Assembly (NCBI GenBank): GCA_049802235.1 | Contig: JBARMB010000050.1 | Span: 87,577 to 151,576 of the forward strand | Reading direction: 5' to 3' | Source: Burkholderiales bacterium | Lineage (GTDB): Bacteria; Pseudomonadota; Gammaproteobacteria; Burkholderiales; SG8-39 | Length of the DNA stretch: 64,000 bases | Shown here: positions 109 to 39,179 of the stretch, in pieces | Position numbering within the stretch: the first letter of the stretch is position 1 | Layout: each line of letters begins with the position of its first letter | Position numbers and translations under genes: made by a program | The notes under the pieces: generated by a model | The model's database searches: none | Told to the model about the DNA's origin: nothing | What the model saw: the letters and a program-made list of their open reading frames with translations, nothing else

Positions 109-1285
109 AGAGGGCCGCCTCGCCGAAAACGTCATGCACTTCGCGCGCGTGCTGCGCGCGGCGGGGCTGCCGATCGGACCCGACCGCGTGATCGACGCGG
201 TGCGCGCGGTCGAAGTCGCGGGTGTGCAGCGGCGCGACGATTTCTATTGGACCCTCGCCGCCGTGTTCCTCGCCCGGCGCGAGCAGTTCGAGATGTTCGA
301 CCAGGCTTTCCACATTTTCTGGCGCGATCCGAAGATGCTCGAGCGCGTCATGGCGATGATGCTGCCGCAGGTGTACGGGCGCCATACGAAGGTCGACGCC
401 GAGCCGCCTTCGAACCGCATCGCCGATGCGCTCTATCCCAAGCCGGAGAAACCGAAGGCCGAGAGCGAGCCGCAGGAGGTTCAGCTCGACGCCGCGCTGA
501 CGTTCTCCGCGCGCGAGGTGCTGCAGCACGCCGACTTCGAGACCATGACCAACGAGGAACTGGCGCAGGCGAAGAAAATGATCGCTAAGCTGCGCCTGCC
601 GATCCCCGAGATCCGCACGCGGCGCTTCTACGCCGACCCGCACGGCGCCCGGGCGGACCTGCGCGCGACGCTGCGCGCGAGCCTGCGCGGCGGCAGCCAG
701 CTCATATCCCTGCGCAAGCGCTCGCCGGCGCGCCGCCACCCGCCGCTGGTGGTGCTGTGCGACGTGTCCGGCTCGATGAGCCGCTACTCGAGGATGTTCC
801 TGCACTTCCTGCACGCGATCACCAGCGACCGCGACCGCGTGACGAGCTTCGTCTTCGGCACGCGCCTCACCAACATCACGCGCCACCTGCGCCATCGCGA
901 CGTCGACGTCGCCATGACCGGGATCGCCGACGCCATCGCCGACTGGTCCGGCGGCACGCGCATCGGCAACTGCCTCGCCGAGTTCAACCTGCGCTGGTCG
1001 CGCCGCGTGCTGGGGCAGAACGCCGTGGTGCTGATGATCTCCGACGGCCTCGACGGCGACGTCGGCGAGGGACTCGCCGCGCAGATGGAGCGGCTGCACA
1101 AGTCGTGCCGCAAGCTCATCTGGCTGAACCCGCTGCTGCGCTACGAGGGGTTCGAGGCGCGGCCGGCGGGCGTGCGCGCGATGCTGCCGCACGTGGACGA
1201 GTTCCTGCCGGTGCACAACGTCGCCAGCCTCGTCGACCTCGCGCGGGCGCTCGAGGGTTCGCACGAGCATCGGCGCGCGGCCTGA
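101..1285 (+). CDS. VWA-domain protein, CoxE-like (accessory protein of molybdenum hydroxylase/CO-dehydrogenase-type clusters)
   Basis: Translation from ATG 101 begins MPEEGRLAENVMHFARVLRAAGLPIGPDRV, a CoxE-like N-terminus. A C-terminal VWA domain carries the MIDAS-type motif VVLCDVSGSMSRYS. The longer ORF-track start at position 2 lies inside the upstream gene's end. Confidence 0.8.
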   Translation: MPEEGRLAENVMHFARVLRAAGLPIGPDRVIDAVRAVEVAGVQRRDDFYWTLAAVFLARREQFEMFDQAFHIFWRDPKMLERVMAMMLPQVYGRHTKVDAEPPSNRIADALYPKPEKPKAESEPQEVQLDAALTFSAREVLQHADFETMTNEELAQAKKMIAKLRLPIPEIRTRRFYADPHGARADLRATLRASLRGGSQLISLRKRSPARRHPPLVVLCDVSGSMSRYSRMFLHFLHAITSDRDRVTSFVFGTRLTNITRHLRHRDVDVAMTGIADAIADWSGGTRIGNCLAEFNLRWSRRVLGQNAVVLMISDGLDGDVGEGLAAQMERLHKSCRKLIWLNPLLRYEGFEARPAGVRAMLPHVDEFLPVHNVASLVDLARALEGSHEHRRAA

Positions 1286-1323
1286 GCGGCGCACGCCTTC
1301 GATCCCCGCAGAGGAGGAGACCA

Positions 1324-2304
1324 GTGAATTCATTCCGATCGCTATGCGTCGCCGCGCTGCATCTCGCGGTCGCCGCAACCGCCTGCGCGCAGGACCCGGC
1401 GGCACATTATCCGGGCCGCACCATCCGCATCATCGTGCCGTTTCCTGCGGGCGGCGCGGCGGACGCGCTGCCGCGCATCGTCGGCGAGAGGCTCACCGCG
1501 AAATGGGGCCAGCCGGTGATCGTCGAGAACCGCGCCGGCGCCAGCGGCTCGATCGGCGCGGAAGCGGTGTTCAAGGCCGAGCCCGACGGCTACGTGCTGC
1601 TGTCGACGCCGCCCGCGCCGCTCGTCATCAATCCGAGCCTGTACAGGAAACTCCCCTACGACCCGACGCAGTTCGTCCCGGTCACGGTAATGGCGGCGAT
1701 CCCGAGCGTGCTGCTGGTGAACCCGGCAAAGGTGCCCGCGAACTCGCTTCAGGAGTTCGTGGCGCTGGTGCGCGCCAACCCGGACAGATTCAACTACGCC
1801 TCACAGGGGACGACCACCGTCTCGTTCCTCACCACCGAGATGTTCAAGGCGGCGGCGGGGGGACTGAAGATCACGCAAGTGCCCTACAAGGGCACCGGAC
1901 CCGGGCTCGCGGCGCTGCTCGCGGGCGAGGTGGACATCATGTTCGACAACCTCGGCGTGACGGTGCCGCAGATACGCGCCGGCAGGCTGAAGGCGCTCGC
2001 CGTGGCCGGCGAGCGGCGCGTCGCCTCGCTCCCCGACGTGCCGGCGATGGCGGAGTTCTACCCGGGCTTCGTCTCGGTCGCCTGGTTCGGCGTCGTGGCG
2101 CCGCCGAAGACGCCGCCGGAAATCGCGGCGAAACTCTCCGCCGCGATCATCGACGTGCTCAGGCAGCCCGAGGTGGCGAAGCGCCTCGCCGGCCTCTCGG
2201 CGGAGATCGTCGCGAGCACGCCGGCGGAAATGAAGAAGATCATGACCGAGGACGCCGAGCGCTGGCGCGGCGTCATCGGCGCGGCGAACGTGAAAGTCGA
2301 GTGA
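1324..2304 (+). CDS. Bug-family (TctC-like) tripartite tricarboxylate transporter substrate-binding protein
   Basis: GTG start at 1324 preceded by GAGGAGGAGA. A signal peptide (VNSFRSLCVAALHLAVAATACAQ) is followed by the Bug hallmark RIIVPFPAGGAADALPR. Confidence 0.85.
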   Translation: MNSFRSLCVAALHLAVAATACAQDPAAHYPGRTIRIIVPFPAGGAADALPRIVGERLTAKWGQPVIVENRAGASGSIGAEAVFKAEPDGYVLLSTPPAPLVINPSLYRKLPYDPTQFVPVTVMAAIPSVLLVNPAKVPANSLQEFVALVRANPDRFNYASQGTTTVSFLTTEMFKAAAGGLKITQVPYKGTGPGLAALLAGEVDIMFDNLGVTVPQIRAGRLKALAVAGERRVASLPDVPAMAEFYPGFVSVAWFGVVAPPKTPPEIAAKLSAAIIDVLRQPEVAKRLAGLSAEIVASTPAEMKKIMTEDAERWRGVIGAANVKVE

Positions 2305-2581
2305 CGCGGAACGTCTTCCCGCGTGCGCCTGTGAGCGGATCGCGGGGGCGGGCCGGGCTGAAATATGCAGACAGGCTGCGGCGTTGCTCCAGTGGGAGCC
2401 AAACAAGTGAGGCCGCAATCTGACAATTGCCATCTATCACGGTCGGCAATGACGACTCAATCATGCAATGTTTTGATAATGAAGGCTCTTGGCGACAAGA
2501 CCGAAGAATCGCGCTTATGATAGATGGCGGTTTTGCCATCTATTGGATAGTTATACTTCACGAGAGAGACTCGCGAATCGC

Positions 2582-2992
2582 ATGGCGCCGAAGGTTCTTG
2601 CAGACCGGCTGGATCACTTCGTCCTCACGGTCAACGACATCGAGGAAACCACGAGGTTCTACGAACGCGCCCTCGGATTCAACAGGGAGTTCTTTCGCGG
2701 ACCGGACGGGCAGCCGCGGCATGCACTGCGCTTCGGCAATCAGAAGATCAACCTTCAGGACCGCACCACCGATACCCCGACCAAGGCAAAGGCCCCCACG
2801 TTCGGGTCGGGCGATTTCTGTGTTGTCGCAGCCGTTCCGCTGGACCAGGTGCTCGCGCGCCTGCGCGCGGAGAACATCCCGATCGTGGCCGGTCCGGTTC
2901 CGAGATGGGGCGCCCTCGGACCGCTGCGTTCCATCTACTTTCGCGACCCTGACGGCAACCTCGTCGAGATCGCGGAGTACGCCGGCCGGTAA
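2582..2992 (+). CDS. VOC (glyoxalase/bleomycin-resistance/dioxygenase) family protein
   Basis: MAPKVLADRLDHFVLTVNDIEETTRFYERALGF...YFRDPDGNLVEI matches the VOC-fold pattern. The internal ATG at 2582 is chosen because the upstream part of the ORF is AT-rich, repeat-containing spacer. Confidence 0.75.
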   Translation: MAPKVLADRLDHFVLTVNDIEETTRFYERALGFNREFFRGPDGQPRHALRFGNQKINLQDRTTDTPTKAKAPTFGSGDFCVVAAVPLDQVLARLRAENIPIVAGPVPRWGALGPLRSIYFRDPDGNLVEIAEYAGR

Positions 2993-3002
2993 AGGGCGCG
3001 GT

Positions 3003-3479
3003 TCAGAGCGGAATGGCAAGCAGCGTATCGATGCTGCGGCTGTCGAGCACCACGACCCGCTCTTCGAACTGCGGCCGGCCGCCGTCGCCGTTCAGGCGGA
3101 TGCGGTCGAGGTAGCGGCCGCTCGCGAACAGCATCGATTCGCCGGTGTGCATGATGCGCACCACCTGGAAGCCCGACACCGCGCGCGCCGTGTCCGCGTC
3201 GAGACGCTCGACCAGCGTGCACGACACGCCGTGGCGGTAGCGCTGCGCCTCGTAGACGTTGGCGTGCCGCAGGGCGCTCACGCGGTCGCGCAGCATGGCG
3301 CGCGAATCGGCGTAGATGATGGGCAGCGGCAGGTCGCGCTCGAAATTCTCCGCGGTGGTGATGCGGTAGCGGCCGTTCTCGACGAAGAAACCCGGCCAGT
3401 CTTCGAGCCGGTCGTCGTCGATCGCGTGCGCGTAGCGCGCGAGGAGGTTTTCGATTTTGAGCTGCAACTCGATATCCAT
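3003..3479 (-). CDS. Aromatic-ring-hydroxylating dioxygenase, beta (small) subunit
   Basis: 158 aa with an NTF2-like small-subunit pattern (IENLLARYAHAIDDDRLEDWPGFF...). It lies 4 nt downstream of the alpha subunit on the same strand. Confidence 0.85.
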   Translation of the reverse strand: MDIELQLKIENLLARYAHAIDDDRLEDWPGFFVENGRYRITTAENFERDLPLPIIYADSRAMLRDRVSALRHANVYEAQRYRHGVSCTLVERLDADTARAVSGFQVVRIMHTGESMLFASGRYLDRIRLNGDGGRPQFEERVVVLDSRSIDTLLAIPL

Positions 3480-3483
3480 CCGG

Positions 3484-4719
3484 CTACAGTCCCATGTGCC
3501 GGCGGTACGCCTGCCACAAGCCCCTCACCGAGGTCTCGGTGACGCGCGACTCGTCCGAGGCGACACCGGCCCCGCCCATTTCGATCACCGCGGCGCGCTC
3601 CGGCGCGCCCTGAACGCCGCGCTGCACGAAGCCGGTGGCGGCGCCGTCTTCCATCGAGATGAACCCCGCCGGGCCGATGAAATTGGCCTGCTTCAGGCGC
3701 CGCTCCGCCATAGCCGCGTCGTCACTCTCGAAACCGAAGCAGGTCCACACCAGTTCGGTCCGGCACACGCCCTTGGGCAGCACCTGGCGCACCGCGAGGC
3801 TGTTCATGATCTGCTGCAGCACGAAGCCCGGGAACACCGCCAGGATCTGCAGCGTGATGCCGTCGCCGATCTCGTCCACCGAATCGAGCAGCGCCGGCGC
3901 TTCGAGCCGGTAGGCGTCCTTCGCCGAGCGCATCCCGGCCTTCTCGTATTCGTCGCCGCGCGCATCGGTCCTCATCATGGTGAAGCTGACGTGGTTGCCG
4001 CCGTCGCCGCCGACGATGACCCCGCCCTTCTGCGACAGCCGGTTCAGCCGGAACGTGGCGAAGAACGTGTGCAGCAGGCTCGCGTGGTAAGTGTCCTTGA
4101 CGTTGTCGAGATACAGCTTCCAGTTGTTGGGAAAGATCTGGCTGTAGCCGCCGAGCAGCTTCACCGGCGCCTTCATCACCCGCCGGATGCGCTGCAGTAT
4201 CTCCGGCCCGAGATAGTCCTCCAGCGGCGGCGTCGCCCCGGAGAGCGTCGCGAACATCAGCCCGCAGAACGTCGCCACGCGCAGCTTCCGCGGCCCATGG
4301 CATTCCGGCTTCGCATCGGCCGGCATTCCGCCCTTGCCCTGGATACCGCGCCGGAAAGCCACGCCGGTGAGGTCGCCCCGCAGATTGTAGGTCCAGTTGT
4401 GATAGACGCAGACGATCTCCCTGACGTTGCCGCGCTGCTTCAGGCACAGCAGCGCGCCGCGGTGCGCGCAGCGGTTCTCGAAGCAGCGCAGCTCGCCCGC
4501 TTCGTCGCGCGTCACCACCACCGGCATGTCGCCGACAAACGTGGTCTTGAAGTCCCCCGCATCGGGCAGCTCGGCCTCGAGCCCGAGAAAATTCCAGGCC
4601 GCGCCGCGGAAGACCCGCTCCTGCTCGCGGGCGTAGATTGCCTCGTCCTGGTAAACCCAGTACGGAACCCGGGTAATGCCTTCGGCGGGCCAGACGCGGG
4701 GCTCAGACACAGCGGACAC
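3484..4719 (-). CDS. Rieske non-heme iron oxygenase, alpha (large) subunit
   Basis: Rieske 2Fe-2S motif CAHRGALLC...CVYHNWTY. The catalytic domain contains DTYHASLLH. GTG start at 4719. Confidence 0.9.
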   Translation of the reverse strand: MSAVSEPRVWPAEGITRVPYWVYQDEAIYAREQERVFRGAAWNFLGLEAELPDAGDFKTTFVGDMPVVVTRDEAGELRCFENRCAHRGALLCLKQRGNVREIVCVYHNWTYNLRGDLTGVAFRRGIQGKGGMPADAKPECHGPRKLRVATFCGLMFATLSGATPPLEDYLGPEILQRIRRVMKAPVKLLGGYSQIFPNNWKLYLDNVKDTYHASLLHTFFATFRLNRLSQKGGVIVGGDGGNHVSFTMMRTDARGDEYEKAGMRSAKDAYRLEAPALLDSVDEIGDGITLQILAVFPGFVLQQIMNSLAVRQVLPKGVCRTELVWTCFGFESDDAAMAERRLKQANFIGPAGFISMEDGAATGFVQRGVQGAPERAAVIEMGGAGVASDESRVTETSVRGLWQAYRRHMGL

Positions 4720-4791
4720 GGAAACCTCGGCGGAGTAGGTGCAATAAATCTGTCTTGGGCGCGATACGCAGCGCCCGTGGACAAGAAATGT

Positions 4792-5832
4792 TCACACCTT
4801 CCTGCCGGGGTGGCCGCGTCGGGTCAGCAGCGCGTCGAGACGTGGATAGACGCGGCGGGCGTTGCCCTCGAAGATCTTATAGCGGCTCTCATCGCTCAAG
4901 GCCTTGACCTGGTCGACGTAGCGTTTGGTGTCGTCGTAATAGTGACCGGTCTGCGGATCGATGCCCTTCACCGCGCCGACCATTTCCGAGGCGAACAGGA
5001 TGTTGTCTATGGGAATGACCTGGGTGAGCAGCTCGATACCCGGCAGATGATAAACGCAGGTGTCGAACCAGACGTTGCTCAGCAGATATTCGGCGAGCGG
5101 CGGTTTACCCATGTCCTGGCACAGGCCGCGGTAGCGGCCCCAGTGGTACGGTACCGCGCCGCCGCCGTGCGGGATGACGAATTTCAGCGTCGGGAAATCC
5201 TTGAACAGATTACCCTGGATGAGCTGCATGAAGGCGGTCGTGTCGCCGTTGATGTAATGCGCGCCGGTGTGGTGGAAATTCGGATTGCAGGACGAGGACA
5301 CGTGGATCATTGCCGGCACTTCGAGCTCGCACAGCTTCTCGTAGATCGGGTACCAGTGCTTGTCGATGAGCGGCGGATCGGTCCAGTAGCCGCCCGAGGG
5401 GTCGGGATTGAGGTTGACGCCGACGAAACCGAGCTCCTTCACGATGCGCTCGAGCTCGGGAATGCAGTTCTTCGGCGATACGCCGGGAAACTGCGGCAGC
5501 TGGCCGACGCCGACGAAATTATCCGGCAGCAGCCTGCAGATGCGGTGGATGAGGTCGTTGCAGATCGTCGACCATTCCCTGCTGATCGCCTCGGTGCCGA
5601 CGTGATGCGCCATGCCGCCGGCGCGCGGCGAGAAGATAGTGAGATCGCTGCCGCGCTCATTCTGGAACTTGAGCTGCGGCGCGACGCTCTTCACCAGCAC
5701 CTCGTCGCCGATGCCCAGATCGGTCGAGGCCGGCTTGCGGGCGGAATCGGCGAGCCCGGCGAGCTGCTTGTCGCGGAACAAGTGGAGCGCCTGCGGCTCG
5801 GTGGTGTAATGGCCGTGGATATCGATGATCAT
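4792..5832 (-). CDS. Amidohydrolase-2 family enzyme (LigJ/ACMSD-like hydratase or decarboxylase)
   Basis: N-terminal MIIDIHGHY metal-binding motif, then NPDPSGGYW...WYPIYEKLCELEVPAMIHV...HGGGAVPY. From memory this resembles LigJ-type 4-oxalomesaconate hydratase. The substrate is not established. Confidence 0.75.
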   Translation of the reverse strand: MIIDIHGHYTTEPQALHLFRDKQLAGLADSARKPASTDLGIGDEVLVKSVAPQLKFQNERGSDLTIFSPRAGGMAHHVGTEAISREWSTICNDLIHRICRLLPDNFVGVGQLPQFPGVSPKNCIPELERIVKELGFVGVNLNPDPSGGYWTDPPLIDKHWYPIYEKLCELEVPAMIHVSSSCNPNFHHTGAHYINGDTTAFMQLIQGNLFKDFPTLKFVIPHGGGAVPYHWGRYRGLCQDMGKPPLAEYLLSNVWFDTCVYHLPGIELLTQVIPIDNILFASEMVGAVKGIDPQTGHYYDDTKRYVDQVKALSDESRYKIFEGNARRVYPRLDALLTRRGHPGRKV

Positions 5833-5881
5833 GGAATGACAGTCTCTGGGTTGAACGATGAAACCGATGCGGGCGGAGGCG

Positions 5882-6745
5882 CTAGCGCGGCGCGGCGATC
5901 ACGCTATCGAGGAACTGGAGCACCCGCGCAGGAGCCGTTTCCTCCGTCTGGCCGGCGACGGGGACGTCCCAGTACTCCGCGCGCGGCAGGCATTCTTCCA
6001 GATACCTCGCCGCCGAGGTCGCGTGCGAGTCGTCGTGGCCCGGAATGACGAGCGCCGGGATGTCCAGGCGGAGCAAATCCTCGGGCTCGGCGCCCGGAGC
6101 GGTATCCCGATCGAGGAGCGTGCGGCCCATGTCGGCGACCAGGAGCTGGTACTTATCCACGTCTTCCCTGGCATAGGACTCGGCAAAGGCGCGGTCATGC
6201 CGGATGACCGCGGCCCATGGCCCGCCTCTCGGGTCGGCACCGAACGGCTTGCCTTCCTGGGTGACCAGCGAGACGACCTGCTGCAGGCCGTGCTGCTGCA
6301 CATACGCCAGATGTTCCGCAAAGCGCTGCCGCCCCTTGATGCGGTATTTGGCGCCGCCCACGGGCCAATAGAGCACCATGCTGAGCGTGGCCTGCGGATA
6401 GGCGACGCCAAACGCGACCACCGGGCAGCAACCCATGCAGCCGCCCATGAGGTGGGCGCGCTTGATGTTCAGATGGTCCAGCAGCCCCTTGCCCTGCGCC
6501 ACGTAGTGGGCCCAGGTCAGGTGCTCGACCCGGCCGCCCGACTGGCCGCACTCGCGCCGGTCGAAGACGATGCAGGTGTATTTCTTCGGCAGGTGGTCAA
6601 GGAGCCTGATGCGGGCGTACACGCCGAGCGTGCTCCACCTCTCCAGCGTGGCGTCGAATCCACCGGGCGAGTACATCAACAACGGCGGCCCGGAGCCCAC
6701 CACCTCGTAGCGTGTGGCGATGCCATCGATGATCGCGGTGGGCAT
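5882..6745 (-). CDS. Alpha/beta-fold hydrolase
   Basis: 287 aa with GSGPPLLMYSPGG near the N-terminus and a nucleophile-elbow-like HLMGGCMGC. The overall length fits meta-cleavage-product hydrolase-like proteins. Confidence 0.7.
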   Translation of the reverse strand: MPTAIIDGIATRYEVVGSGPPLLMYSPGGFDATLERWSTLGVYARIRLLDHLPKKYTCIVFDRRECGQSGGRVEHLTWAHYVAQGKGLLDHLNIKRAHLMGGCMGCCPVVAFGVAYPQATLSMVLYWPVGGAKYRIKGRQRFAEHLAYVQQHGLQQVVSLVTQEGKPFGADPRGGPWAAVIRHDRAFAESYAREDVDKYQLLVADMGRTLLDRDTAPGAEPEDLLRLDIPALVIPGHDDSHATSAARYLEECLPRAEYWDVPVAGQTEETAPARVLQFLDSVIAAPR

Positions 6746-6757
6746 GGCGCGATCGGG

Positions 6758-7573
6758 TCAGGTCTTGATCTGGCGCGCCGCGCGCACGTCTTCAGCCAGG
6801 GCCGAAAAAGCGTCGAGCGCGATCCTGGCGACATTGGCATAGCCCCCGGGCTTGTCGATGGCGCTGGCCGCATAGCCGATGGCGGCATGCGCCATTCGCA
6901 CCCGCCCATCGAGCCAAGGCCCGCCGCCGAATCCGCCGATCACCGGTATTCCCACCGCACTGACCACTGCAGCGCCTGCCACCGGCCCGGAATTGGTGAA
7001 GTCCAGCAGGGCGGCACCCGCCGCCTCGAGGCGCTTTGCCTGTTCGACGAGCTTCGCCGCCATTCCTGCCGGCGCCTGTGCTCCGGCCGCCGCCTGGGCA
7101 CTGTAGGAGATGCCGAATTGCAGGGCGGTCTGCGGAGTAAGCCCGAATTGCGCCCAGACCGGAATACCCGCACGGGTGAGCGCAGTGACCGCCTCGGGAA
7201 AATCGGCTGCGCCGTCCAGCTTGATCATGTCCGCGCCCGCCTCTTTGACGATGCGGATGGCAGCGCGCACTGTGCTGTCCACGCCCTCCTGCAGCGGACC
7301 GAAGGGAAAGTCGCAGCTGACGAGTGCCCGCTTCACGCCACGGCGCACGGCCTTGCAGACCACGAGCATCTCCTCCAGCGTGACCTCCAGGGGATTGGAA
7401 TGGCCCCACAAATTGACGCCCACCGAATCTCCCACAGAGACGATTTCCACCCCGGCACGGTCCGCGATCTGCGCGATCTGGTAGTCCCAGGCCACCACGC
7501 CGACAATTTTTCGTCCGTCGCGCTTCATCTGCTGAAGCGCAGGAATGGTGACAGCGGACTGCTCGGACTCCAT
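6758..7573 (-). CDS. PanB-family (3-methyl-2-oxobutanoate hydroxymethyltransferase-like) enzyme, catabolic paralogue
   Basis: From ATG 7573: MESEQSAVTIPALQQMKRDGRKIVGVVAWDY...SVGDSVGVNLWGH...GLTPQT...IPVIGGFGGG aligns with the PanB motif order. Upstream of 7573 the ORF track extends into non-coding sequence. Confidence 0.8.
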   Translation of the reverse strand: MESEQSAVTIPALQQMKRDGRKIVGVVAWDYQIAQIADRAGVEIVSVGDSVGVNLWGHSNPLEVTLEEMLVVCKAVRRGVKRALVSCDFPFGPLQEGVDSTVRAAIRIVKEAGADMIKLDGAADFPEAVTALTRAGIPVWAQFGLTPQTALQFGISYSAQAAAGAQAPAGMAAKLVEQAKRLEAAGAALLDFTNSGPVAGAAVVSAVGIPVIGGFGGGPWLDGRVRMAHAAIGYAASAIDKPGGYANVARIALDAFSALAEDVRAARQIKT

Positions 7574-7667
7574 GGTGGCTCCTCTTTCGCTCGGGTCGGG
7601 GCCCCACCGCGCCGGGCGGTGCGACTCCTGATTATAACGATTCCAACGAGACCAAATTCGCCCGGAA

Positions 7668-8612
7668 TCAGGCCGTGAGGCCGTGCGTGTTACGCGCAAA
7701 CAGCTCTCCCACCGTAACGGGGCGGGTGATGATGCCCTGCGTCAGGCTGTGCCGGATGATTTCCTCGAGGACCGACCGGTTGGGCGCGATGCCGTAGGGC
7801 AGCGGATCGCCCGTGATGTCCATCACCCGCCGGTGTACTTCGTCTACCTGGGTCGGCTTCGCAATCCGGCCGGCCTTGAGGCGCTGGATGTAGAGACGCT
7901 TCGCCTCGGCGAAGGCGTTGAAGATGTCCGCGGCCAGATCCGGGTGGGCGTCAAGGAGGTCGTCCTTGATCACGACCGTGTGGTTGATGGGGTAATGGCC
8001 GCGCTGGCGCAGGGCCGCAAGGCCCGCCTCCAGCGCATTGGGAATGAGAGGCTTCACGTCCGGGTGGTCCATCTCAACGCCGATGGCGGCGGCGATCTCC
8101 CCCGAAGCCACCAGGTCCCCCAGCTTCTTCCCTTTCTCAATGGGCACGACATTGACGGGGGGCCGGTACTCGGCCACATGCTCGTCGCCGGAGAGCATCC
8201 AGGTGATCTTGCCCAGGTCCACGCCGTGCTCCTGCTGCAGGACGCTTCGGGCCCACAGACCGGTGGTGACGGTGTAGCCGCGATTGACGCCAATCTTCTT
8301 GCCTTCCAGATCCTTGGGGCTCTTGATGCCGGCCTTGGTGTTGACCACGATGGCGCCGTGATGGAAGGCCCGCACCAGAAAGATGGGCAAGGCGGTCATG
8401 CGCTTCCCATGGGCGCGCGCGCACACGTAGGTGGTGATCGCCATCTCGCAGATGTCGAACTCCAGCCCCCGCACCATGCGGCGGAACGCGTCGATGAGGG
8501 GATTGACCTCTTCGAACTCGAACGCGAAGGTCCTGGGTTTGGCGCTGCCGTCCTTGAGCGCCTGGTTGTTTCCCTGGGTGCGGGTTACGGTCTTCAGCTT
8601 GAGTTCGGCCAT
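7668..8612 (-). CDS. Periplasmic-binding-fold (NMT1/PhtD-like) cytoplasmic protein, putative decarboxylase-family
   Basis: From ATG 8612: MAELKLKTVTRTQGNNQALKDG...EFDICEMAITTY...DLEGKKIGVNRGYT. There is no signal peptide. It shares the architecture of the paralogues at 8812 and 24468. Confidence 0.6.
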   Translation of the reverse strand: MAELKLKTVTRTQGNNQALKDGSAKPRTFAFEFEEVNPLIDAFRRMVRGLEFDICEMAITTYVCARAHGKRMTALPIFLVRAFHHGAIVVNTKAGIKSPKDLEGKKIGVNRGYTVTTGLWARSVLQQEHGVDLGKITWMLSGDEHVAEYRPPVNVVPIEKGKKLGDLVASGEIAAAIGVEMDHPDVKPLIPNALEAGLAALRQRGHYPINHTVVIKDDLLDAHPDLAADIFNAFAEAKRLYIQRLKAGRIAKPTQVDEVHRRVMDITGDPLPYGIAPNRSVLEEIIRHSLTQGIITRPVTVGELFARNTHGLTA

Positions 8613-8811
8613 GGGGCGCTTCGATTCAGGTGGACTGAGGAAGTCATGTCGCGGTTGAGCGCGCAGTGTATGCGTAACGTCCGCGGCGTGTCGAGCGAGA
8701 ACCGGAAACGGGGTGTGTCCTGATCTCCCCTGACCGTTCCCGCGTTCATATTGCGCGCCGAACAATTCCGCTATCATCGACACTGTACAAGCGAAAGCTC
8801 AAGGGGAGCCC

Positions 8812-9801
8812 ATGTCGCAACTGCGTCTTTCCATCGCGACCACGGATTACGATCATTTCCGCGATTTCAGGCTGGGCTGGGTCAAGGCCGAAGGCATCGA
8901 TCTCAATTGGCTCAATCTCGGCCACCACGAGTGCTTTGCGCGCTTCACGGCCCATCGCGAATTCGATTTATCCGAACTTTCCTTGGCGAAATTCACGACC
9001 CAGGTGACGCGCAAAGACAGCGACGTCATAGGCCTTCCGGTCGTCTGCTCGCGGCTGTTCCGCTTCAGCTCCTTCTATGTGAACAAGAAGAGCAAGATCA
9101 AAACCGTGCAGGATCTGAAGGGCAAGAAAATCGGCTCGCCGGAATGGGCGCATTCGGCGGCCGTGTATATGCGCGGCTGGATGCACAACGACATGGGCGT
9201 GAAGCTCACGGACGTGCACTGGGTCCAGGCGGGCGCGAACGCGCCCGGCCGCGAAGAAAAGGTCGAGCTCGATCTCCCCAAGGGGCTGAAGCTCACGCGC
9301 GTCGCCGACAAGTCCCTGAGCGAGTTGCTGGCCGCGGGCGAGATCGACTGCGCCATCATCGCGCGCCCGCCGAACTGTTTCCTGGAAGGCCATCCCGACG
9401 TGGTGCGCCTGTTTCCGGATTATCTCGGGATGGAAGAGGACTATTACGAACGGACCGGGGTCTGGCCGATCATGCACATCATTGCAATGAGGAGGCGGAT
9501 CCTGGAGGAGAATCCCTGGGCCGCGCGCAATCTCTACAATGCCTTCCTGGAATCGAAGCGCCGCAGCATCGAGCGCCTGCTCGATCCCGCCGTATCGCGC
9601 TATCCACTGGCGTGGCTTCCCACCTACGCGCGCAAGATGCGCGACCTGTTCGGCGGCGATCCGTTTCCCTACGGCATCGAGGAAAACCGTGCGACCTGGG
9701 AACAGATGGCGCTCTACACCTGGCAGCAGGGCATTGCCCACCGCCAATTCAAGCCCGAGGAAATTTTCCCCGAGGGCATCATGACCAAGGTGGTGATCTG
9801 A
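8812..9801 (+). CDS. 4,5-dihydroxyphthalate decarboxylase-family (PhtD-like) protein
   Basis: MSQLRLSIATTDYDHFRDFRLGWVKAEGIDLNWL...EFDLSELSLAKF is an N-terminal pattern typical of proteins annotated as PhtD-like. RBS AAGGGGA lies upstream. Confidence 0.65.
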   Translation: MSQLRLSIATTDYDHFRDFRLGWVKAEGIDLNWLNLGHHECFARFTAHREFDLSELSLAKFTTQVTRKDSDVIGLPVVCSRLFRFSSFYVNKKSKIKTVQDLKGKKIGSPEWAHSAAVYMRGWMHNDMGVKLTDVHWVQAGANAPGREEKVELDLPKGLKLTRVADKSLSELLAAGEIDCAIIARPPNCFLEGHPDVVRLFPDYLGMEEDYYERTGVWPIMHIIAMRRRILEENPWAARNLYNAFLESKRRSIERLLDPAVSRYPLAWLPTYARKMRDLFGGDPFPYGIEENRATWEQMALYTWQQGIAHRQFKPEEIFPEGIMTKVVI

Positions 9802-11885: not shown

Positions 11886-11912
11886 GGTCAGTGAGCTGAC
11901 CCCTTAGGTTTT
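11886..11912 (+). terminator. Candidate intrinsic terminator hairpin (GGTCAG-TGAG-CTGACC) after the DUF1761 gene
   Basis: A perfect 6-bp stem with a 4-nt loop at 11886-11901 is followed by CCTTAGGTTTT. The U-tract is short and interrupted. The hairpin overlaps the left direct repeat. Confidence 0.35.
11892..11903 (+). repeat. Left copy of the 12-bp direct repeat TGAGCTGACCCC flanking the island
   Basis: Identical to 16604-16615. A second nearby near-repeat is GGGTCGGAGT (11858-11867) against GGGTCGGAAT (16595-16604). Confidence 0.7.
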
Positions 11913-11938
11913 GACAGGCCCAGTGAACAGAAAATAGT
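11911..11938 (+). promoter_or_regulatory. Candidate sigma70-type promoter for the island operon (TTGACA-N16-AATAGT)
   Basis: Perfect -35 TTGACA at 11911-11916 and a 4/6 -10 match at 11933-11938, about 55 nt upstream of ATG 11992 in an A-rich spacer. Confidence 0.3.
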
Positions 11939-11991: not shown

Positions 11992-12246
11992 ATGATGCCT
12001 AATGCTCGACTCAAGGCCGTCACCCGTGAGGACGTCATTCGCGTCAGCAAGCGAATCGAACCAAAAACTATCCAGAAGTGGAGCGTTGTTGTAGGAAATA
12101 AAGAGTTTCCTATTAAACAGATTCTAATGGAGGCAGCAAATAGCATTACTTCCTCTGCTCCTCGTGTTACGCCTGCAGATTTCATCACCCATTCCGCAGT
12201 AAGCCGCCTCAAGACGCTTGGGTTTGCGGTTCGGTACTCCGAATGA
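11992..12246 (+). CDS. Small (84 aa) protein resembling the N-terminal putative DNA-binding module of McrB/HNH-type restriction proteins
   Basis: The pattern VTREDVIRV...KWSVVVGNKEFPIKQILMEAAN...TPADFITHSAVSRLKTLGFAV matches a module I recall at the N-termini of many type IV restriction/HNH proteins (itrEdv..., y.l...gk.yP.K.i...A, ...f.....a...L..LGF.v). No clear SD sequence. Its stop overlaps the next ATG (ATGA). Confidence 0.55.
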   Translation: MMPNARLKAVTREDVIRVSKRIEPKTIQKWSVVVGNKEFPIKQILMEAANSITSSAPRVTPADFITHSAVSRLKTLGFAVRYSE

Positions 12247-13589
12247 GAACTCAGAAGCGCTCGACAGTCGAGCTGTCGGATCTGCTAAGCGATTGCGATA
12301 ATCTAGCTCGGCGGTTTGTGGTGGAGGACAGAACTCGAGAGTTCGGAAAATTTCTGACATTTGAGCCCAATCTTTCACGGCCGATTCATCGCTGGTACAA
12401 ATTCAAAGAAGGATTCTCTCAGGAGTTGGTTGATCGCCTCCTAACAGAATATCGGCCGCCTTCGGCGAAGACCTTGGCATTCTTGGATCCGTTCTCCGGG
12501 GTTGGCACCTCGCTGCTGGCTGCTGAGGGGACATTGCGAAAGCTAGGGGCAAAGGAAATCCGAGTTCGTGGCGTCGAAGTAAACCCATACATGCACTTCG
12601 TGGGTAAGACTAAGCTGGACTGGCAACGTTACGATCCAGTCTTTCTCCGTCGCGCAGCTGCGGCCGCTACGAATGGGCTGGCCTTAAGAAAGAAGCCATC
12701 TATCCCAGGTCTGTCTACGATAAGAGATGCTAGGTTCATCGATCCGAATGACCTACAGAGAATCCTCGAGCTCCGAGACAAGGTCAAAATGGTTGCGCAG
12801 GGTCGTCCTGAGGTTCGCCCCCTGCTTCTTGGTCTTGCGGCTGGCGCAGAACGCATTTTCAATCTGCGGAAGGACGGTCGTGCTCTCCGTTTTACGCCTC
12901 GAGAGGGCGGCAAAAGCGTTGACGAGGAAATCGAGTGCGCATGGAATGATATTTCTGAAGATCTGCAGCTCAATGTTGAGAGGTCACCAGCTGACTGGAA
13001 GCTTGCAAAAGGCGACGGACGAAGAGTCGATCGGATATTCAGCCACGAAAAATTCGACGTAATCCTCTTTTCTCCTCCTTATCTGAATAACATTGATTAC
13101 ACCGAAGTCTATAAGATCGAGCAGTGGCTTTTGGGATTTCTGAATAGCAGTCCCGAGATGGTTGCTCAGCGCAAGCGAACCTTTCGCAGTCATCCGAGTT
13201 GTATATTTCCCGACTATCGAGACGCCAATACGGAGGAGGTTGTCAACATTCTGGGCGCGCCATTTCGGCGATTACTTGAATACGCTTCCCGCGAAGAGAA
13301 TTGGCGTCGCCGACTCTTTACTGGTTACTTCGCCGATATGTATAGGACGCTGTTAGCAAGCCGAAGGCTGCTCAAGCAGAGCGGTCGAGTATTTCTCATA
13401 GTAGGGAATTCCGTGCACGGAACGCCGGATCGTCCGATCCCTATTGCCGTTGATCTTTGGATCGCGAAGCTCGCTAAGGCAGCGGGCCTACGTGTGGAAT
13501 CTATTCTAGTTGGCCGATTGCTCTCGAGGCGACGCATGGAGTGGAATGGATTTCGTGAATCGATCATAGTCATGTCGAAGGCGACCTAG
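12243..13589 (+). CDS. Putative DNA methyltransferase (N4-cytosine or N6-adenine; SPPY catalytic motif)
   Basis: AdoMet motif I-like LDPFSGVGTS (aa 81-90, nt 12483-12512) is followed by GVEVNP. Catalytic motif IV is ILFSPPYLNNIDY (SPPY at nt 13071-13082). Motif I precedes motif IV by about 190 aa. VFLIVGNS lies near the C-terminus. Confidence 0.75.
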   Translation: MRTQKRSTVELSDLLSDCDNLARRFVVEDRTREFGKFLTFEPNLSRPIHRWYKFKEGFSQELVDRLLTEYRPPSAKTLAFLDPFSGVGTSLLAAEGTLRKLGAKEIRVRGVEVNPYMHFVGKTKLDWQRYDPVFLRRAAAAATNGLALRKKPSIPGLSTIRDARFIDPNDLQRILELRDKVKMVAQGRPEVRPLLLGLAAGAERIFNLRKDGRALRFTPREGGKSVDEEIECAWNDISEDLQLNVERSPADWKLAKGDGRRVDRIFSHEKFDVILFSPPYLNNIDYTEVYKIEQWLLGFLNSSPEMVAQRKRTFRSHPSCIFPDYRDANTEEVVNILGAPFRRLLEYASREENWRRRLFTGYFADMYRTLLASRRLLKQSGRVFLIVGNSVHGTPDRPIPIAVDLWIAKLAKAAGLRVESILVGRLLSRRRMEWNGFRESIIVMSKAT

Positions 13590-13591
13590 CT

Positions 13592-15535
13592 ATGGCACTC
13601 AGCAAGAAGGACAGCTCCCTTCGATTCGAAGCTAGCGCCAGACTACAGCGATTGTTCGGCCGCGAGCTTATTCCGGACGATGACTCAGCGGTAGAAGAGT
13701 TGACCAAGAACGCATATGACTCTAATGCATCGGAAGTTACGATCACAATTGTTCGTCCATCTGGCGATCGGGATGGAGAAATAGAAATACGAGATAACGG
13801 CCTAGGCTTATCTCTTACAGAGTTCAACCGTGTTTGGATGCGGGCTGGCTATTCAGAGAAAGCCGGACAGCCGCTTCCAGGTACTGGGCGAGTTCAGGTT
13901 GGTGAAAAAGGAATCGGGCGTTTCGCGGCAGATAAACTTGGCCGACACCTAATTGTGCTAACGAAGCCTCGTGGGGCCCGCGAAGCGCTAAAGGTGACCT
14001 TCGACTGGAGAAAGTTCGAGAAGAAGAAACTGTTGCTCTCTGATATTTCCAATCCATATGAACATGTGGACGAGCCTTTGCTTCCGAAGGGCTCCTCCGG
14101 GACGATTCTTCGAATACGCGGCCTACGTTCCGATTGGCCCGACAAGGCCATAGAAGAAATGCGCCGTCGCCTATCGCGCCTTTTGAATCCCTACGACAAA
14201 GGGCAGACTTTCCGAATCGTTCTAAATGCGCCAAGCCGAAAGCTGAGTGGGCCTATCGTCGGGAGCGAGATCAAAAATGCTGACTTCGAATGGGAAGTCA
14301 CGAGGTCTGCGCAGGGCACTATCCGTATGAAGCGACGGAACCGCGTGCAACGCGGTATTCCGGAATGGAGCGACTGGGAATCAGTGCTCATAACAAAAAA
14401 GGGGTCGGTCCCGGAGCAGCAAGACTTTGGTCCTGTAAATGCCCGCTTCTTCTTCTTTGTAGACCGACCGAAGAAAGCAAATATTGGTGATGCTATACCT
14501 GGTGTGGCTATTTACCGTGATGGCATGCGAGTAGAGCCCGCGGGATCGAGTAGCGCGGACTGGCTAGGACTACTAGAAAAGCGGGCAAAGCGCGCTGGTC
14601 ATATGCCGTTAGTTCCTTCTAGACTCTTCGGCTTTGTCAAGATCAGCCGCGATGAAAATCCGGAGTTGCAGGACGCCACAAATCGGCGCGCTTTTGTACA
14701 CGGCCCGCAACTTGATACCTTTCGGCAATTCTTGAAGGACAGACTAAGTGAACTCGAGGCACAAGTCGAAAGTGAGGTTGCCAAGCCCCGGTGGGAAAAG
14801 TCAAAGCAGCTTAAGAGCCAGAAGCTTCTTCAGGCGCGCTACAACACGGTTAGCATCATGTCCCTTAGCTTGGCTCACGAACTTAGGCAACCACTTCAGG
14901 CTATACAGACGGCCTCGGAGAATATTCGTGATTATCTTAAGCAGAAAGGCATCACAATTGCAGAAGTGGACTCTGGGACCGATGTGATTAGAAGAAACGT
15001 GGCACGGATTGAAAAACACATTCAATTTCTGAAGTCACTGGGATCAGGGCGACAAGAACAGGAATCATTCGATGCTGTTAAGGCAGCAGAAGAGGTAATC
15101 GGAGTATTTGGCGGGGTTGCGGCGGCGCAGAACGTTCAGCTTGTCCGAGAAGGTTCACCAAAATCGATGGTACTCAGTAACCACGCGACATTCTTAGCCA
15201 CGCTTACGAATCTTGTCCTCAATGCATTACAGGCCATTGAGGGACAGGATGAACAGAAACCACATCACATTCAAATAAAATTCGAGGCTGGGCGGAAGCT
15301 CACTAAGATACGAGTAGAAGACGATGGGCCAGGAATACCAGAGGCGAACCGCACGAGACTGTTCAAGCGCCTAACGACCAGCAAGCAAGGAGGCATGGGC
15401 ATCGGTCTCATTGTATGGCGCGAGGCCTTGCAGATGTTTAGCGGCGAACTGGAGTGCGAAAGCTTTAGCGACCCAACAACGTTTGTTATAACAGTTCCCA
15501 CGGGGGTGCCGGATGGCTCGAGTTCTTCTGGTTGA
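13592..15535 (+). CDS. Fusion protein: N-terminal MORC/paraMORC-like GHKL ATPase plus C-terminal histidine-kinase core (HisKA and HATPase_c); no TM or classical sensor domain
   Basis: N-terminal Bergerat motifs are EELTKNAYDSNA (N40), IRDNGLGL (aa 66-73) and GEKGIGRFAADKLG (aa 104-117). The H-box is SLAHELRQPL (His429, nt 14876-14878). The second GHKL module has NLVLNALQAI (N-box), VEDDGPGIP (G1) and KQGGMGIGL (G2). No hydrophobic segments. Confidence 0.8.
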   Translation: MALSKKDSSLRFEASARLQRLFGRELIPDDDSAVEELTKNAYDSNASEVTITIVRPSGDRDGEIEIRDNGLGLSLTEFNRVWMRAGYSEKAGQPLPGTGRVQVGEKGIGRFAADKLGRHLIVLTKPRGAREALKVTFDWRKFEKKKLLLSDISNPYEHVDEPLLPKGSSGTILRIRGLRSDWPDKAIEEMRRRLSRLLNPYDKGQTFRIVLNAPSRKLSGPIVGSEIKNADFEWEVTRSAQGTIRMKRRNRVQRGIPEWSDWESVLITKKGSVPEQQDFGPVNARFFFFVDRPKKANIGDAIPGVAIYRDGMRVEPAGSSSADWLGLLEKRAKRAGHMPLVPSRLFGFVKISRDENPELQDATNRRAFVHGPQLDTFRQFLKDRLSELEAQVESEVAKPRWEKSKQLKSQKLLQARYNTVSIMSLSLAHELRQPLQAIQTASENIRDYLKQKGITIAEVDSGTDVIRRNVARIEKHIQFLKSLGSGRQEQESFDAVKAAEEVIGVFGGVAAAQNVQLVREGSPKSMVLSNHATFLATLTNLVLNALQAIEGQDEQKPHHIQIKFEAGRKLTKIRVEDDGPGIPEANRTRLFKRLTTSKQGGMGIGLIVWREALQMFSGELECESFSDPTTFVITVPTGVPDGSSSSG

Positions 15536-16013
15536 TGACGAGAAAGATATCCGTGACATGTTTCTCGATGCGCTGAAACTGCACGGACATCAAGTGGATG
15601 TTGCCGCCTCCGCTGAGGAAGCCATGAAGCGTGCTGCGAATCGAAGCTATGACGTTGCAATAATTGATTACGTTTTGCCGGACAAGCGTGGCCTGGATCT
15701 CTTGCAGGAATTGCGCCGCCGCCAGTCCTTCCTGAGAGCAATCATTATCTCCGGACAGATTGATCACGACGTGCTTGATGCCGGTGAACTTGAGAGGCAA
15801 CTGAAAGAGCGTATCGCGGCAGACCGCTATTTGCCGAAGCCCACCAGTATCGATAGTTTAGTTCGAGCGATAGAAGATGTTCTCAAACCCACGGCTGCCG
15901 GTGATTGGAAGCAGATGGCTGCCGCTGCCGTAGCAGCGCAAGGTGTTAAGACCAAGCACGTAAAGGACATGGATCGCGCACTACATAAAGCGCGCAAGAA
16001 GCGTAAAACATGA
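15513..16013 (+). CDS. Stand-alone response-regulator receiver (CheY-like) protein with a basic C-terminal tail
   Basis: The receiver-signature residues I looked for (acidic pair, phospho-acceptor Asp, Ser/Thr, Lys) are all present: VLLVDDE (D8, D9), IIDYVLPD (D52), IIISG (S80) and LPKP (K109). There is no output domain. The tail is ...HKARKKRKT. It overlaps the kinase gene by 23 nt. Confidence 0.85.
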   Translation: MARVLLVDDEKDIRDMFLDALKLHGHQVDVAASAEEAMKRAANRSYDVAIIDYVLPDKRGLDLLQELRRRQSFLRAIIISGQIDHDVLDAGELERQLKERIAADRYLPKPTSIDSLVRAIEDVLKPTAAGDWKQMAAAAVAAQGVKTKHVKDMDRALHKARKKRKT

Positions 16014-16492
16014 TCTACGTTCTGGATACGTGTGCCTTAATATGGGCCTATCGGGAAAGATCCAAGTTTTGTCGCCGTTGTCGATACATAATTAGCCACT
16101 GTCAAGGGCGCGTATACGTCGCAGAGATAACCGTTCTCGAGATTGTTAGCGCGCTAGGAAGGACACATCGACGCGGGACAATTACACTTGGCGAGTACTC
16201 GCAGGCTAATCGCAGGTTTTTGCGCGATGTTGCTTCAGGCGCACTGGTCGTTATGTCATTACCCAGTTCGGAATTTGTCGCGTGTCGGGATCTATTGCAG
16301 TTGGTCGGAATTGACGCGGGCAGAAATCTCCAAACCCAAGATGCGATGGTCGCTTATACCGCTCGCCGCCTAGCTCTTGAGCGTGGCGAGGTAGTAAGGC
16401 TGCTGACTAGCGACCGGCGTCTTGCGGCGATCGTTAAGGAGCTACCAATCTTCAAGAACCTCGTCATTTCTGAATACCTCAATCCCAACTAA
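16010..16492 (+). CDS. PIN-domain nuclease (VapC-like)
   Basis: MIYVLDTCALIW (D6), VLEIV (E44), TQDAMVAYTA (D111) and LLTSDRRLA (D135) form the four-acidic-residue PIN signature. The ATG overlaps the receiver gene's stop (ATGA). Confidence 0.8.
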   Translation: MIYVLDTCALIWAYRERSKFCRRCRYIISHCQGRVYVAEITVLEIVSALGRTHRRGTITLGEYSQANRRFLRDVASGALVVMSLPSSEFVACRDLLQLVGIDAGRNLQTQDAMVAYTARRLALERGEVVRLLTSDRRLAAIVKELPIFKNLVISEYLNPN

Positions 16493-16603: not shown

Positions 16604-16615
16604 TGAGCTGACCCC
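16604..16615 (+). repeat. Right copy of the 12-bp direct repeat TGAGCTGACCCC flanking the island
   Basis: Identical to 11892-11903. It lies 17 nt from the gor stop codon. Confidence 0.7.

Positions 16616-39103: not shown

Positions 39104-39179
<76 letters not shown>

Follow-up and report, generated by a model that had tools for sequence, protein, structure and literature searches.

We analysed a window of 64,000 nt from a Burkholderiales bacterium (GCA_049802235.1, contig JBARMB010000050.1, positions 87,577-151,576 of the forward strand), i.e., the whole stretch of DNA to which the coordinates below refer. Its central subject is a gene at 13592-15535 that encodes a soluble protein with two GHKL ATPase modules, namely a paraMORC-like head and a histidine-kinase core. 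Our reading, for which we estimate a probability of roughly 0.55, is that this kinase is the sensor of a horizontally acquired five-gene cassette with restriction-modification (R-M) logic, in which a phosphorelay is placed between sensing and a killing step of the PIN type. A sequence-only reading of the same DNA had viewed the gene alone and overlooked its setting, namely a low-GC island in which a methylase gene precedes the kinase and genes for a receiver and a PIN protein follow it. Given these neighbours and the island, the reading shifts from an odd kinase to an R-M/defence-type cassette.

The kinase and its parts are located as follows, each with the evidence on which the assignment is based.

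13592-15535, + strand: dual-GHKL kinase with a paraMORC-like ATPase head in front of a histidine-kinase core (Pfam, NCBIfam, homologue alignment, AlphaFold, Foldseek)
13613-14191, + strand: N-terminal Bergerat-fold ATPase domain, aa 8-200 (HATPase_c_3, NCBIfam head match, invariant motif residues)
14192-14704, + strand: middle transducer-like domain, aa 201-371, with the superfamily-wide motif YRDG.RVEP.G..DWLG...KRAKRAGH (predicted local distance difference test (pLDDT), Foldseek alignment length, invariant residues)
14705-15043, + strand: signalling helix and dimerisation and histidine-phosphotransfer (DHp) domain with the phospho-acceptor H429, aa 372-484 (modelled helices, HisKA match, FixL DHp alignment)
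15044-15511, + strand: catalytic ATP-binding (CA) domain, aa 485-640 (HATPase_c, invariant residues, matches to the FixL chimera, NtrB, HK853 and ZraS)

The open reading frame (ORF) runs uninterrupted from ATG to stop and encodes 647 aa. Pfam places HATPase_c_3 at aa 32-160 (E 1.1e-22, 81 bits, cut-off 25 bits) and HATPase_c at aa 537-637 (E 7.6e-22, 78 bits, cut-off 26.4), which bears out the earlier claim of two GHKL modules on one polypeptide. HisKA is found at aa 426-477 (E 5.7e-5) with 23.5 bits, i.e., just below its cut-off of 26.9, and reaches 26.5 bits, still under that value, when the DHp fragment is scanned separately. Every motif quoted in the sequence-only reading is present at the position given there. 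Invariance of residues was judged in an alignment of 54 full-length homologues with 35-75% identity. Here, the N-terminal ATP site is invariant at E36, K39, N40, D43, D68, G70, G72, G104, K106, G107 and G109, the H-box SLAH429E430LRQPL at H429, E430, Q433 and L435, and the C-terminal ATP site at N544, D577, G581, G601 and G603. The alignment thus points to purifying selection on the H-box and on each of the two ATP sites. Mean identity is 55% for the head versus 35% for the CA domain.

Next, we consider the fold of the head, for which a MORC/MutL-like module followed by a transducer-like middle region had been proposed. The same reading had named a different fold of aa 1-200 as its possible refutation; the profile search gave HATPase_c_3 in this region, far above the cut-off. 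By sequence, the closest solved relatives of the head are the N-terminal domains of MutL, with a weak match (E about 0.4) that places E36 and N40 on the conserved E...N of MutL motif I; we take these two residues to correspond to the general base and the Mg ligand of MutL (E29 and N33 in E. coli). Since the sequence search against the PDB gave only this weak match for the head, a chance-level match for the methylase and none at E <= 10 for the PIN protein, a fold search was needed.

The AlphaFold2 model of the kinase, built on the 54-homologue alignment, has a mean pLDDT of 83.6, with most of aa 30-400 above 84, the middle domain (aa 201-371) mostly between 84 and 96 and lower values over short stretches around aa 81-110, 141-150 and 361-370. 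In a Foldseek search against the PDB, SMCHD1 (6mw7), DNA-bound MORC2 (9cdj/9cdh) and MORC3 (6o1e) match the N-terminal half with their ATPase modules in alignments of 419-467 columns (E 3e-13 to 3e-12), which agrees with the proposed MORC/MutL-like module. HtpG, GRP94 and Topo VI-B are matched as well (E 3e-13 to 4e-12 and target-normalised template-modelling score 0.41-0.55 over all these structures). Since alignments of 419-467 columns far exceed the roughly 200 residues of a Bergerat domain, aa 201-371 behave like the transducer of a GHL ATPase, and the modelled N-terminal half is consistent with a GHKL-plus-transducer module. The best-conserved stretch outside the ATP sites also lies in this middle domain (AIYRDGMRVEPAG..DWLG..KRAKRAGH..VPSRLFGFV.ISR), where R309, D310, G311, E315, P316, D323, W324, G336 and H337 are invariant among the 54 homologues; relatives with only 22-31% identity still share the motif core in their consensus.

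Among NCBIfam models, the head (aa 33-216) matches NF050001, the family of the restriction enzymes BbrUII and HgiDII, with E 1.6e-19. Full membership in this family is rejected, i.e., the match concerns the head portion only. Two REBASE-derived restriction endonuclease models (REase_II) of PADLOC match the kinase in a likewise partial manner, and all PADLOC matches listed for it are to REase_II models. We label the head paraMORC-like, not MORC; true MORCs are separated from paraMORCs by a MORC-specific sequence motif (PMC2292703).

The C-terminal part had been described as a complete class I kinase core, and this holds: the H-box and the N, G1 and G2 residues are invariant and the fold matches are to histidine kinases. 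The C-terminal 240 residues match AtoS, NtrB, PgtB, FixL and many other kinases (NCBIfam), aa 403-637 align to FixL-based chimeras with H-box on H-box (phmmer against the PDB, E 3e-16), and Foldseek relates the C-terminal half of the model to FixL chimeras, HK853, ZraS and YycG. By these sequence features, i.e., an H-box His followed by an acidic residue, the N, G1, F and G2 boxes of the CA domain and an adjacent cognate receiver, the protein is assigned to the class I (HisKA-type) kinases. We find neither a membrane segment in it (maximum Kyte-Doolittle 19-residue mean 1.15) nor any PAS, GAF, HAMP or CHASE family (Pfam, E <= 0.01), as had been noted before, and the head occupies the position that is usually taken by a sensor domain. 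Head and DHp are connected in the model by one unbroken helix of 80 residues (aa 372-451), followed by a second helix at aa 457-484. The earlier proposal that dimerisation of the head could be the input of the kinase is a reasonable hypothesis.

The kinase gene is the third of five genes on the same strand. Its partners are listed below.

11992-12246, + strand: small ORF of 84 aa, probably a controller or a protein that binds DNA (conserved position; its stop overlaps the ATG of the methylase)
12243-13589, + strand: DNA methyltransferase, 448 aa, amino-methyltransferase type (PADLOC, PHROG, motifs I/IV)
15513-16013, + strand: receiver-only response regulator, 166 aa, with a basic C-terminal tail (Response_reg, E 8.8e-18)
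16010-16492, + strand: predicted VapC-type PIN-domain nuclease, 160 aa (Pfam PIN, model, Foldseek)

The five genes are joined by overlaps or by a gap of 2 nt, i.e., the kinase starts 2 nt past the methylase stop, the receiver start overlaps the kinase stop by 23 nt, and the ATG of the PIN gene overlaps the receiver stop by 4 nt (ATGA). Together they form the sole low-GC block of the window, with a GC content of 0.517 versus 0.62-0.69 elsewhere. The edges of this island lie near 11.85 and 16.55 kb (about 4.7 kb), between a DUF1761 gene and a gene for a pyridine-nucleotide-disulphide oxidoreductase. We conclude that the cassette is horizontally acquired.

The arrangement is conserved among the closest homologues (loci are given below by their L numbers). 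Five homologue contigs with kinases of 37-71% identity keep the order methylase, kinase, receiver and PIN-like gene, and in the closest of them the small ORF comes first as well. A scan with hidden Markov models (HMMs) over L001-L088 places a receiver with tail and a PIN gene after the kinase in every close-clade locus (window, L001, L002, L003/4, L005/6, L007/8, L009 and L016), and the methylase is directly 5' of the kinase in all close-clade loci whose contig includes that flank. The HMMs also detect the tailed receiver and the PIN gene in a Chloroflexi locus whose kinase is only 28% identical (L019). Approached from the other end, the PIN family comprises 29 matches in a database of 5.8 billion proteins, and all three sampled contexts (L092, L093, L094) are the same cassette. 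In total, it is present in 11/11 close-clade loci examined, which come from different phyla. Its settings are typical of defence islands and mobile elements: L001 is surrounded by a type I R-M system and an integrase (1-4256 and 13802-13926), L002 by a TrwC relaxase, ArdC and ParB, L003 by ParB-methylases, L092 by a BREX-like pair of PglZ and SNF2 helicase (1841-7769), and L093 by an integrase and Abi_C (7181-9446).

These counts also bear on the most sceptical view, namely that the protein is a housekeeping kinase with coincidental neighbours or an artefactual fusion of two genes. It has in its favour that NCBI annotates the gene simply as 'sensor histidine kinase'. It is already contradicted by synteny and architecture counts: the same five-gene order recurs in the 11 loci from different phyla, and the GC content of the island is deviant. 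Furthermore, more than 120 full-length homologues of 624-653 aa in the databases share the two-GHKL architecture, and both HATPase_c_3 and HATPase_c are found in 67/67 sampled distant full-length relatives (22-31% identity, mostly 650-790 aa). A frameshift artefact, which had been raised as a concern earlier, is excluded because of these more than 120 like proteins and because the junction lies inside the one continuous 80-residue helix of the model. We therefore give this view next to no weight.

The methylase next to the kinase matches the PADLOC model MTase_II PDLC03224 (E 2.6e-42) and the PHROG family 18146 'DNA methyltransferase' (E 1e-31), and there are weak matches to Pfam N6_N4_Mtase and to mad2 of PADLOC. 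Among 7 orthologues, neither motif I (LDPFSGVGT) nor motif IV (SPPY) varies. The SPPY form of motif IV is typically that of N4-cytosine methylases, which we note as a lead to the modified base. For the small ORF in front of it no significant Pfam or PHROG match was found; it may be a controller protein. Orthologues with 69-71% identity sit at the same position in L001 and L007, L093 has an 83-aa gene there with the same weak PF28009 ('SCO5918') tag, and HTH_17/MerR genes take this place in L005 and L094.

The receiver carries the residues D8-D9, D52, S80 and K109. It is followed by a basic tail of about 40 residues, in which W132, A136, L157 and K162 are invariant among 6 orthologues (37-65% identity). 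PADLOC reports weak matches of the receiver domain to SduA, PD-T4-6 and PDC-M60. All PADLOC matches within the cassette being partial or weak, none defines it, and we rejected its identity with the named defence systems.

The composition of the receiver is relevant for the view that kinase and receiver form a regulatory two-component system whose targets are the adjacent methylase or R-M genes, either in their expression or in their activity. The conserved linkage to a methylase fits this, and a suggestion of this kind has been published for the related HEF_HK family (PMC8011034). The view is weakened because the receiver has no DNA-binding output domain, only the tail of about 40 residues. 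In addition, the invariant partner is a toxin-type nuclease, and a separate small HTH-like or controller gene already heads the operon. Altogether, we regard a purely regulatory role as improbable.

The last gene encodes a PIN domain well above the Pfam cut-off (E 5.5e-10, 40.3 bits versus 23.6) with an acidic tetrad, D6, E44, D111 and D135, that is invariant in 23 homologues. Its AlphaFold model (pLDDT 93.4) is nearest to structures of the VapC type: Foldseek returns 2fe1, 1v8o and 3tnd, the proteins PAE0151 and PAE2754, the VapCs of Shigella, Salmonella and the F plasmid, and VapC11, VapC15 and VapC20 of M. tuberculosis.

This fold matters for another alternative, according to which kinase, receiver and PIN protein together are a restriction enzyme, i.e., the clamp on unmethylated DNA recruits the PIN domain to cut that DNA, with the His-Asp chemistry only tuning the assembly. 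Here, one can point to the homology of the head to those of real type II restriction enzymes (NF050001; REase_II of PADLOC), to the HNH DNase that follows the receiver in other subfamilies (e.g., on a Deinococcus gobiensis plasmid) and to the proposal of DNA looping plus a nuclease for paraMORCs (Iyer et al. 2008, PMC2292703). The PIN model, however, is nearest to VapC ribonucleases and not to PINs of the FEN/5'-nuclease type. Moreover, the H-box is invariant and both the CA domain and the receiver signature are complete, which argues for a central and not an accessory role of phosphotransfer. Such a restriction complex is thus unlikely, if somewhat less so than a purely regulatory system.

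The main rival starts from the likeness to VapBC toxin-antitoxin pairs. As in these, a PIN protein of about 160 aa with four conserved acidic residues and the VapC fold is encoded with a 4-nt overlap behind its partner gene. In contrast to VapBC, this partner is a receiver with a basic tail and not a DNA-binding antitoxin of the AbrB, ribbon-helix-helix or helix-turn-helix (HTH) type, and the receiver-PIN pair is never found alone in the sampled loci but always behind kinase and methylase. The rival takes the cassette as an addiction or 'dead-man' module: the kinase would phosphorylate the receiver all the time in a healthy cell, the phosphorylated receiver silences the PIN toxin, and loss of the cassette, collapse of ATP or shut-off of the host releases the toxin as the labile phospho-Asp decays, so that methylase and clamp serve selfish maintenance in the manner of R-M post-segregational killing. 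The receiver gene is exactly at the position of the VapB antitoxin with its 4-nt overlap, and the PIN fold is that of VapC. The cassette lies in a mobile low-GC island, often beside integrases, and several copies (L016, L019, L093) appear to be decaying, which is typical of selfish modules. What such a module leaves unexplained is the need for a DNA-type clamp and a methylase; also, the head is the best-conserved part of the protein, which argues for a specific sensed ligand. We consider this rival unlikely, although it ranks before the other alternatives.

We thus return to the reading of the cassette as a sensing and killing device and spell out how it might work. The SPPY methyltransferase would mark the host's own DNA. 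The kinase would act as a homodimer whose input part is a paraMORC-type clamp of GHKL and transducer domains, which shares homology with HgiDII/BbrUII restriction-enzyme heads. Upon a cue, the two heads would close on ATP. The likeliest cue would be DNA that lacks the methyl mark of the cassette, read directly or via the methylase; another cue of invasion may serve as well. The motion would be passed through the long helix into the DHp bundle and alter autophosphorylation at H429, from where the phosphoryl group would go to D52 of the receiver-only protein. This receiver, in the antitoxin position before the PIN gene, may hold or address the PIN protein by its conserved basic tail, such that altered phosphorylation frees or activates the PIN protein. 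By analogy with VapC, the latter would cut tRNA or rRNA, and the resulting stop of translation would abort the infection or the establishment of a plasmid. Four elements of this scheme are ones that we infer, namely the cue, a physical link to the methylase, the binding of the PIN protein by the receiver tail and the PIN substrate. The sign of the relay, i.e., kinase-on versus kinase-off, is not readable from the sequence. The specific version, in which a methylase-assisted MORC-like clamp senses unmarked DNA, drives the kinase and switches the receiver as 'antitoxin' of a VapC-type RNase, is tentative, and we regard it as less likely than not.

Several observations weigh against the sensor-cassette reading, and we collect them here. 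The defence role, the kinase activity and the toxicity of the PIN protein are all properties that we infer, and no experiments on any dual-GHKL kinase were found in the literature searched. We identified no domain in the kinase that would bind DNA or read methylation, which makes the cue named above a guess. VapC-type PINs are usually paired with DNA-binding antitoxins, and for a receiver domain as antitoxin of a PIN protein no precedent was found in the searched literature. The NF050001 match of the head is partial, covering profile positions 24-203 of 659 with 70 bits versus a cut-off of 550. PADLOC 2023 has no dedicated model for the cassette and makes the locus a type II R-M system only via partial REase_II/MTase_II matches. 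Furthermore, most close-clade members are metagenome-derived, and three copies show apparent frameshifts in kinase or receiver (L016 at 6400-7900, L019 at 3090-4130 and L093 at 3513-5526, the L093 kinase being in two pieces of 468 and 221 aa, P0030). Either the copies are decaying or the metagenome assembly is in error there.

We also compared the system with what has been described. The sequence-only reading was not aware of any characterisation of this architecture; this stands in so far as no experimental study was found; it fails in so far as the architecture has been described computationally in 2008 and 2021. Orlowski and Bujnicki (2008, PMC2441816) reported GHKL heads for HgiDII and four other subfamilies of restriction endonucleases, and also a putative enzyme, R.EcoUTORF4938P, that has GHKL at its N-terminus and resembles histidine kinases at its C-terminus, where N, D, F and G motifs are present; we did not find it in E. 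coli UTI89 at 4.96-5.01 Mb. In the same year, Iyer, Abhiman and Aravind (PMC2292703) defined paraMORC1-5 in R-M operons, none of them with a kinase. Finally, Bellieny-Rabelo, Pretorius and Moleleki (2021, PMC8011034) described proteins composed of HATPase_c_3, HEF_HK and HATPase_c, 91.6% of which are linked to Response_reg_2 genes. C5 methylases, HNH_2 and Vsr genes are nearby in these loci, the head was suggested to be a sensor, and the family was proposed to branch from paraMORCs. The paper also states that a canonical DHp never occurs together with HATPase_c_3, but the protein of the window and many of its close relatives do join HATPase_c_3 to a canonical HisKA.

The HEF_HK systems are the closest analogue. 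They share with the cassette a soluble kinase with an N-terminal paraMORC-type GHKL module, a DHp with conserved His and a C-terminal HATPase_c, an adjacent receiver-like gene, an upstream DNA methylase, an R-M/defence neighbourhood and a head proposed as sensor; the window protein is remotely homologous to many such proteins over its whole length. In contrast, its DHp is a canonical HisKA of the FixL/NtrB/AtoS type, its partner is a canonical Response_reg (PF00072) with a special tail in place of Response_reg_2, the methylase is of the SPPY amino type and not C5, and the effector is a VapC-type PIN and not HNH_2 or Vsr. Membership in HEF_HK/Response_reg_2 was rejected, as neither PF19191 on the DHp nor PF19192 on the partner gives a match even at E <= 10.

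With paraMORCs in general, the protein shares a GHKL domain whose ATP motifs are intact, the linkage to methylases and nucleases, a sporadic, laterally mobile distribution and, judging by the modelled fold, a transducer-like domain behind the GHKL domain. One of them, VcSduA (paraMORC3, a Shedu), has been validated in anti-phage defence (PMC12137116); it cannot do without its ATPase, as defence is lost in ATPase mutants, and its head presumably governs the nuclease at the C-terminus. The difference lies in the output: paraMORC1-5 have nuclease, TIR or unknown C-termini, or SF2 helicase partners, and none has been described with a histidine-kinase output, whereas the window protein would, judging by its domains, transfer phosphate to a separate receiver. 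Compared to the HgiDII/BbrUII enzymes, whose family model matches the head, the kinase gene is placed next to a methylase like that of a restriction enzyme; it differs by having no recognisable nuclease domain, such that cleavage, if any, would come from the separate PIN protein.

Two-component relays as such are known from immunity. In Detocs, the relay itself acts as anti-phage defence (Rousset et al. 2023, bioRxiv 10.1101/2023.01.24.525353), and the proposed common features are a histidine kinase plus receivers as an immune device, a stand-alone receiver, modular effectors and abortive infection. Detocs kinases have a TPR-type sensor instead of a MORC-like clamp, their effector, in most cases a PNP ATP nucleosidase, is part of the receiver polypeptide and not encoded as a separate PIN gene, the stand-alone receiver is a phosphate buffer, and there is no methylase, as opposed to the obligate methylase partner of the cassette. 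Identity with Detocs was rejected, given that the DtcA/DtcB/DtcC trio is absent, the effector is separate and there is one receiver protein only. A predicted and so far unvalidated system with HATPase and REC domains appears in a figure legend of the 2026 machine-learning paper on DefensePredictor. What is new in relation to the systems described before is the canonical HisKA and REC, the SPPY methylase and the VapC-type PIN effector.

Finally, we evaluated how far the architecture extends beyond the close clade. A phmmer search with the head (aa 1-410) against 1.84 billion cluster representatives yields 5100 matches at E <= 1e-3, of which 3193 reach E <= 1e-10. Within the 67 distant relatives introduced above, HisKA is recognised in 2, HEF_HK in 1 (at 1e-3) and a C5 DNA methylase domain in 1. 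The last is presumably the 1401-aa protein P0178, which by its length could carry a C5 methylase fused in front of a whole dual-GHKL kinase; such a fusion would suggest that methylase and kinase act as one complex.

For the distribution over phyla, we used one genome per GTDB species, which gave at least 569 relatives from all major bacterial phyla; 80 species-representative loci were kept for neighbourhood counts. Archaeal dual-GHKL kinases with the same head are encoded in a Nitrosopumilus (L039) and in metagenome-assembled genomes of Methanobacteriota (L076) and Woesearchaeota (L083). Roughly half of the upstream ORFs match a DNA methylase, i.e., C5 in 23/68 cases, N6_Mtase in 7, N6_N4_Mtase in 3 and Eco57I in 3. 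The downstream ORF matches Pfam Response_reg in 22/77 cases, and in a joint alignment it shows the receiver signature at the acidic pair (71/77 and 70/77), the acceptor Asp (73/77) and the Lys/Arg (68/77), which puts a receiver behind the kinase in about 90-95% of the loci. An HNH endonuclease is the next ORF after the receiver position in 10/57 loci. Given these counts, the window gene represents one clade of a very large methylase-linked, receiver-coupled superfamily with exchangeable nucleases.

Two annotated replicons of cultured strains illustrate this. Plasmid P2 of Deinococcus gobiensis encodes an HTH protein, an Eco57I-type methylase, a 'sensor histidine kinase', a hypothetical protein and an HNH protein, while pREB1 of Acaryochloris marina has a C5 methylase, an 'ATP-binding protein' and a 388-aa 'response regulator'. 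The receiver-like partners (L009-L088) fall into two size classes of about 190-260 aa and about 360-460 aa; no Pfam family was found for the C-terminal halves of the long ones in an aggregate scan, and they may be uncharacterised effector domains. Among plasmid and phage proteins, no match spans 80% or more of the kinase; the listed plasmid matches cover the head alone with 26-33% identity, except for two histidine-kinase matches with 24% identity. Parts of the kinase match PHROG families of unknown function (phrog_6203 for the head, phrog_8137 for the middle domain and phrog_857 for the kinase core), and relatives are therefore carried by phages or prophages, too.

Three smaller sequence features lie at the margins of the island.

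11911-11938, + strand: sigma-70-like promoter candidate, TTGACA, 16-nt spacer, AATAGT (consensus match 10/12)
11892-11903, no strand assigned: left copy of the 12-nt direct repeat TGAGCTGACCCC (island edge; GC 0.62-0.66 falls to about 0.51 just after)
16604-16615, no strand assigned: right copy of the 12-nt direct repeat TGAGCTGACCCC (island edge; GC rises to 0.64-0.72 just after)

The promoter candidate is located 54 nt 5' of the first cassette gene, in the AT-rich stretch that opens the island; it is a consensus match only, and such sites are not commoner in the region than in shuffled sequences. The repeat pair may be an insertion scar or a remnant of an att site. Since a repeated 12-mer within 5 kb is near chance level, we list it as a candidate scar only. 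The only tRNA gene of the window, tRNA-Thr (CGT) at 39104-39179 on the - strand, lies away from the island.

ATPases of the MORC/paraMORC type are common in the defence loci of prokaryotes, and in eukaryotes MORCs have an important role in chromatin silencing, yet the cue for clamp closure and its read-out are poorly understood. With a kinase joined to the clamp, activation of the clamp could be read as phosphorylation in vitro. At least 5100 cluster representatives belong to the superfamily concerned, which extends over all major bacterial phyla and into some archaea. The present labels, 'sensor histidine kinase' or the REBASE-derived 'type II restriction enzyme', miss the system as a whole. 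Should the cassette prove to be an immune system, it would be the second two-component kind after Detocs and the first to join self-marking by methylation, a phosphorelay and an RNase of the toxin-antitoxin type. If the proposed scheme is true, it would represent a new defence logic, i.e., epigenetic sensing of self and non-self with an abortive, RNA-directed output, and a receiver domain would for the first time be seen to serve a PIN toxin as antitoxin.

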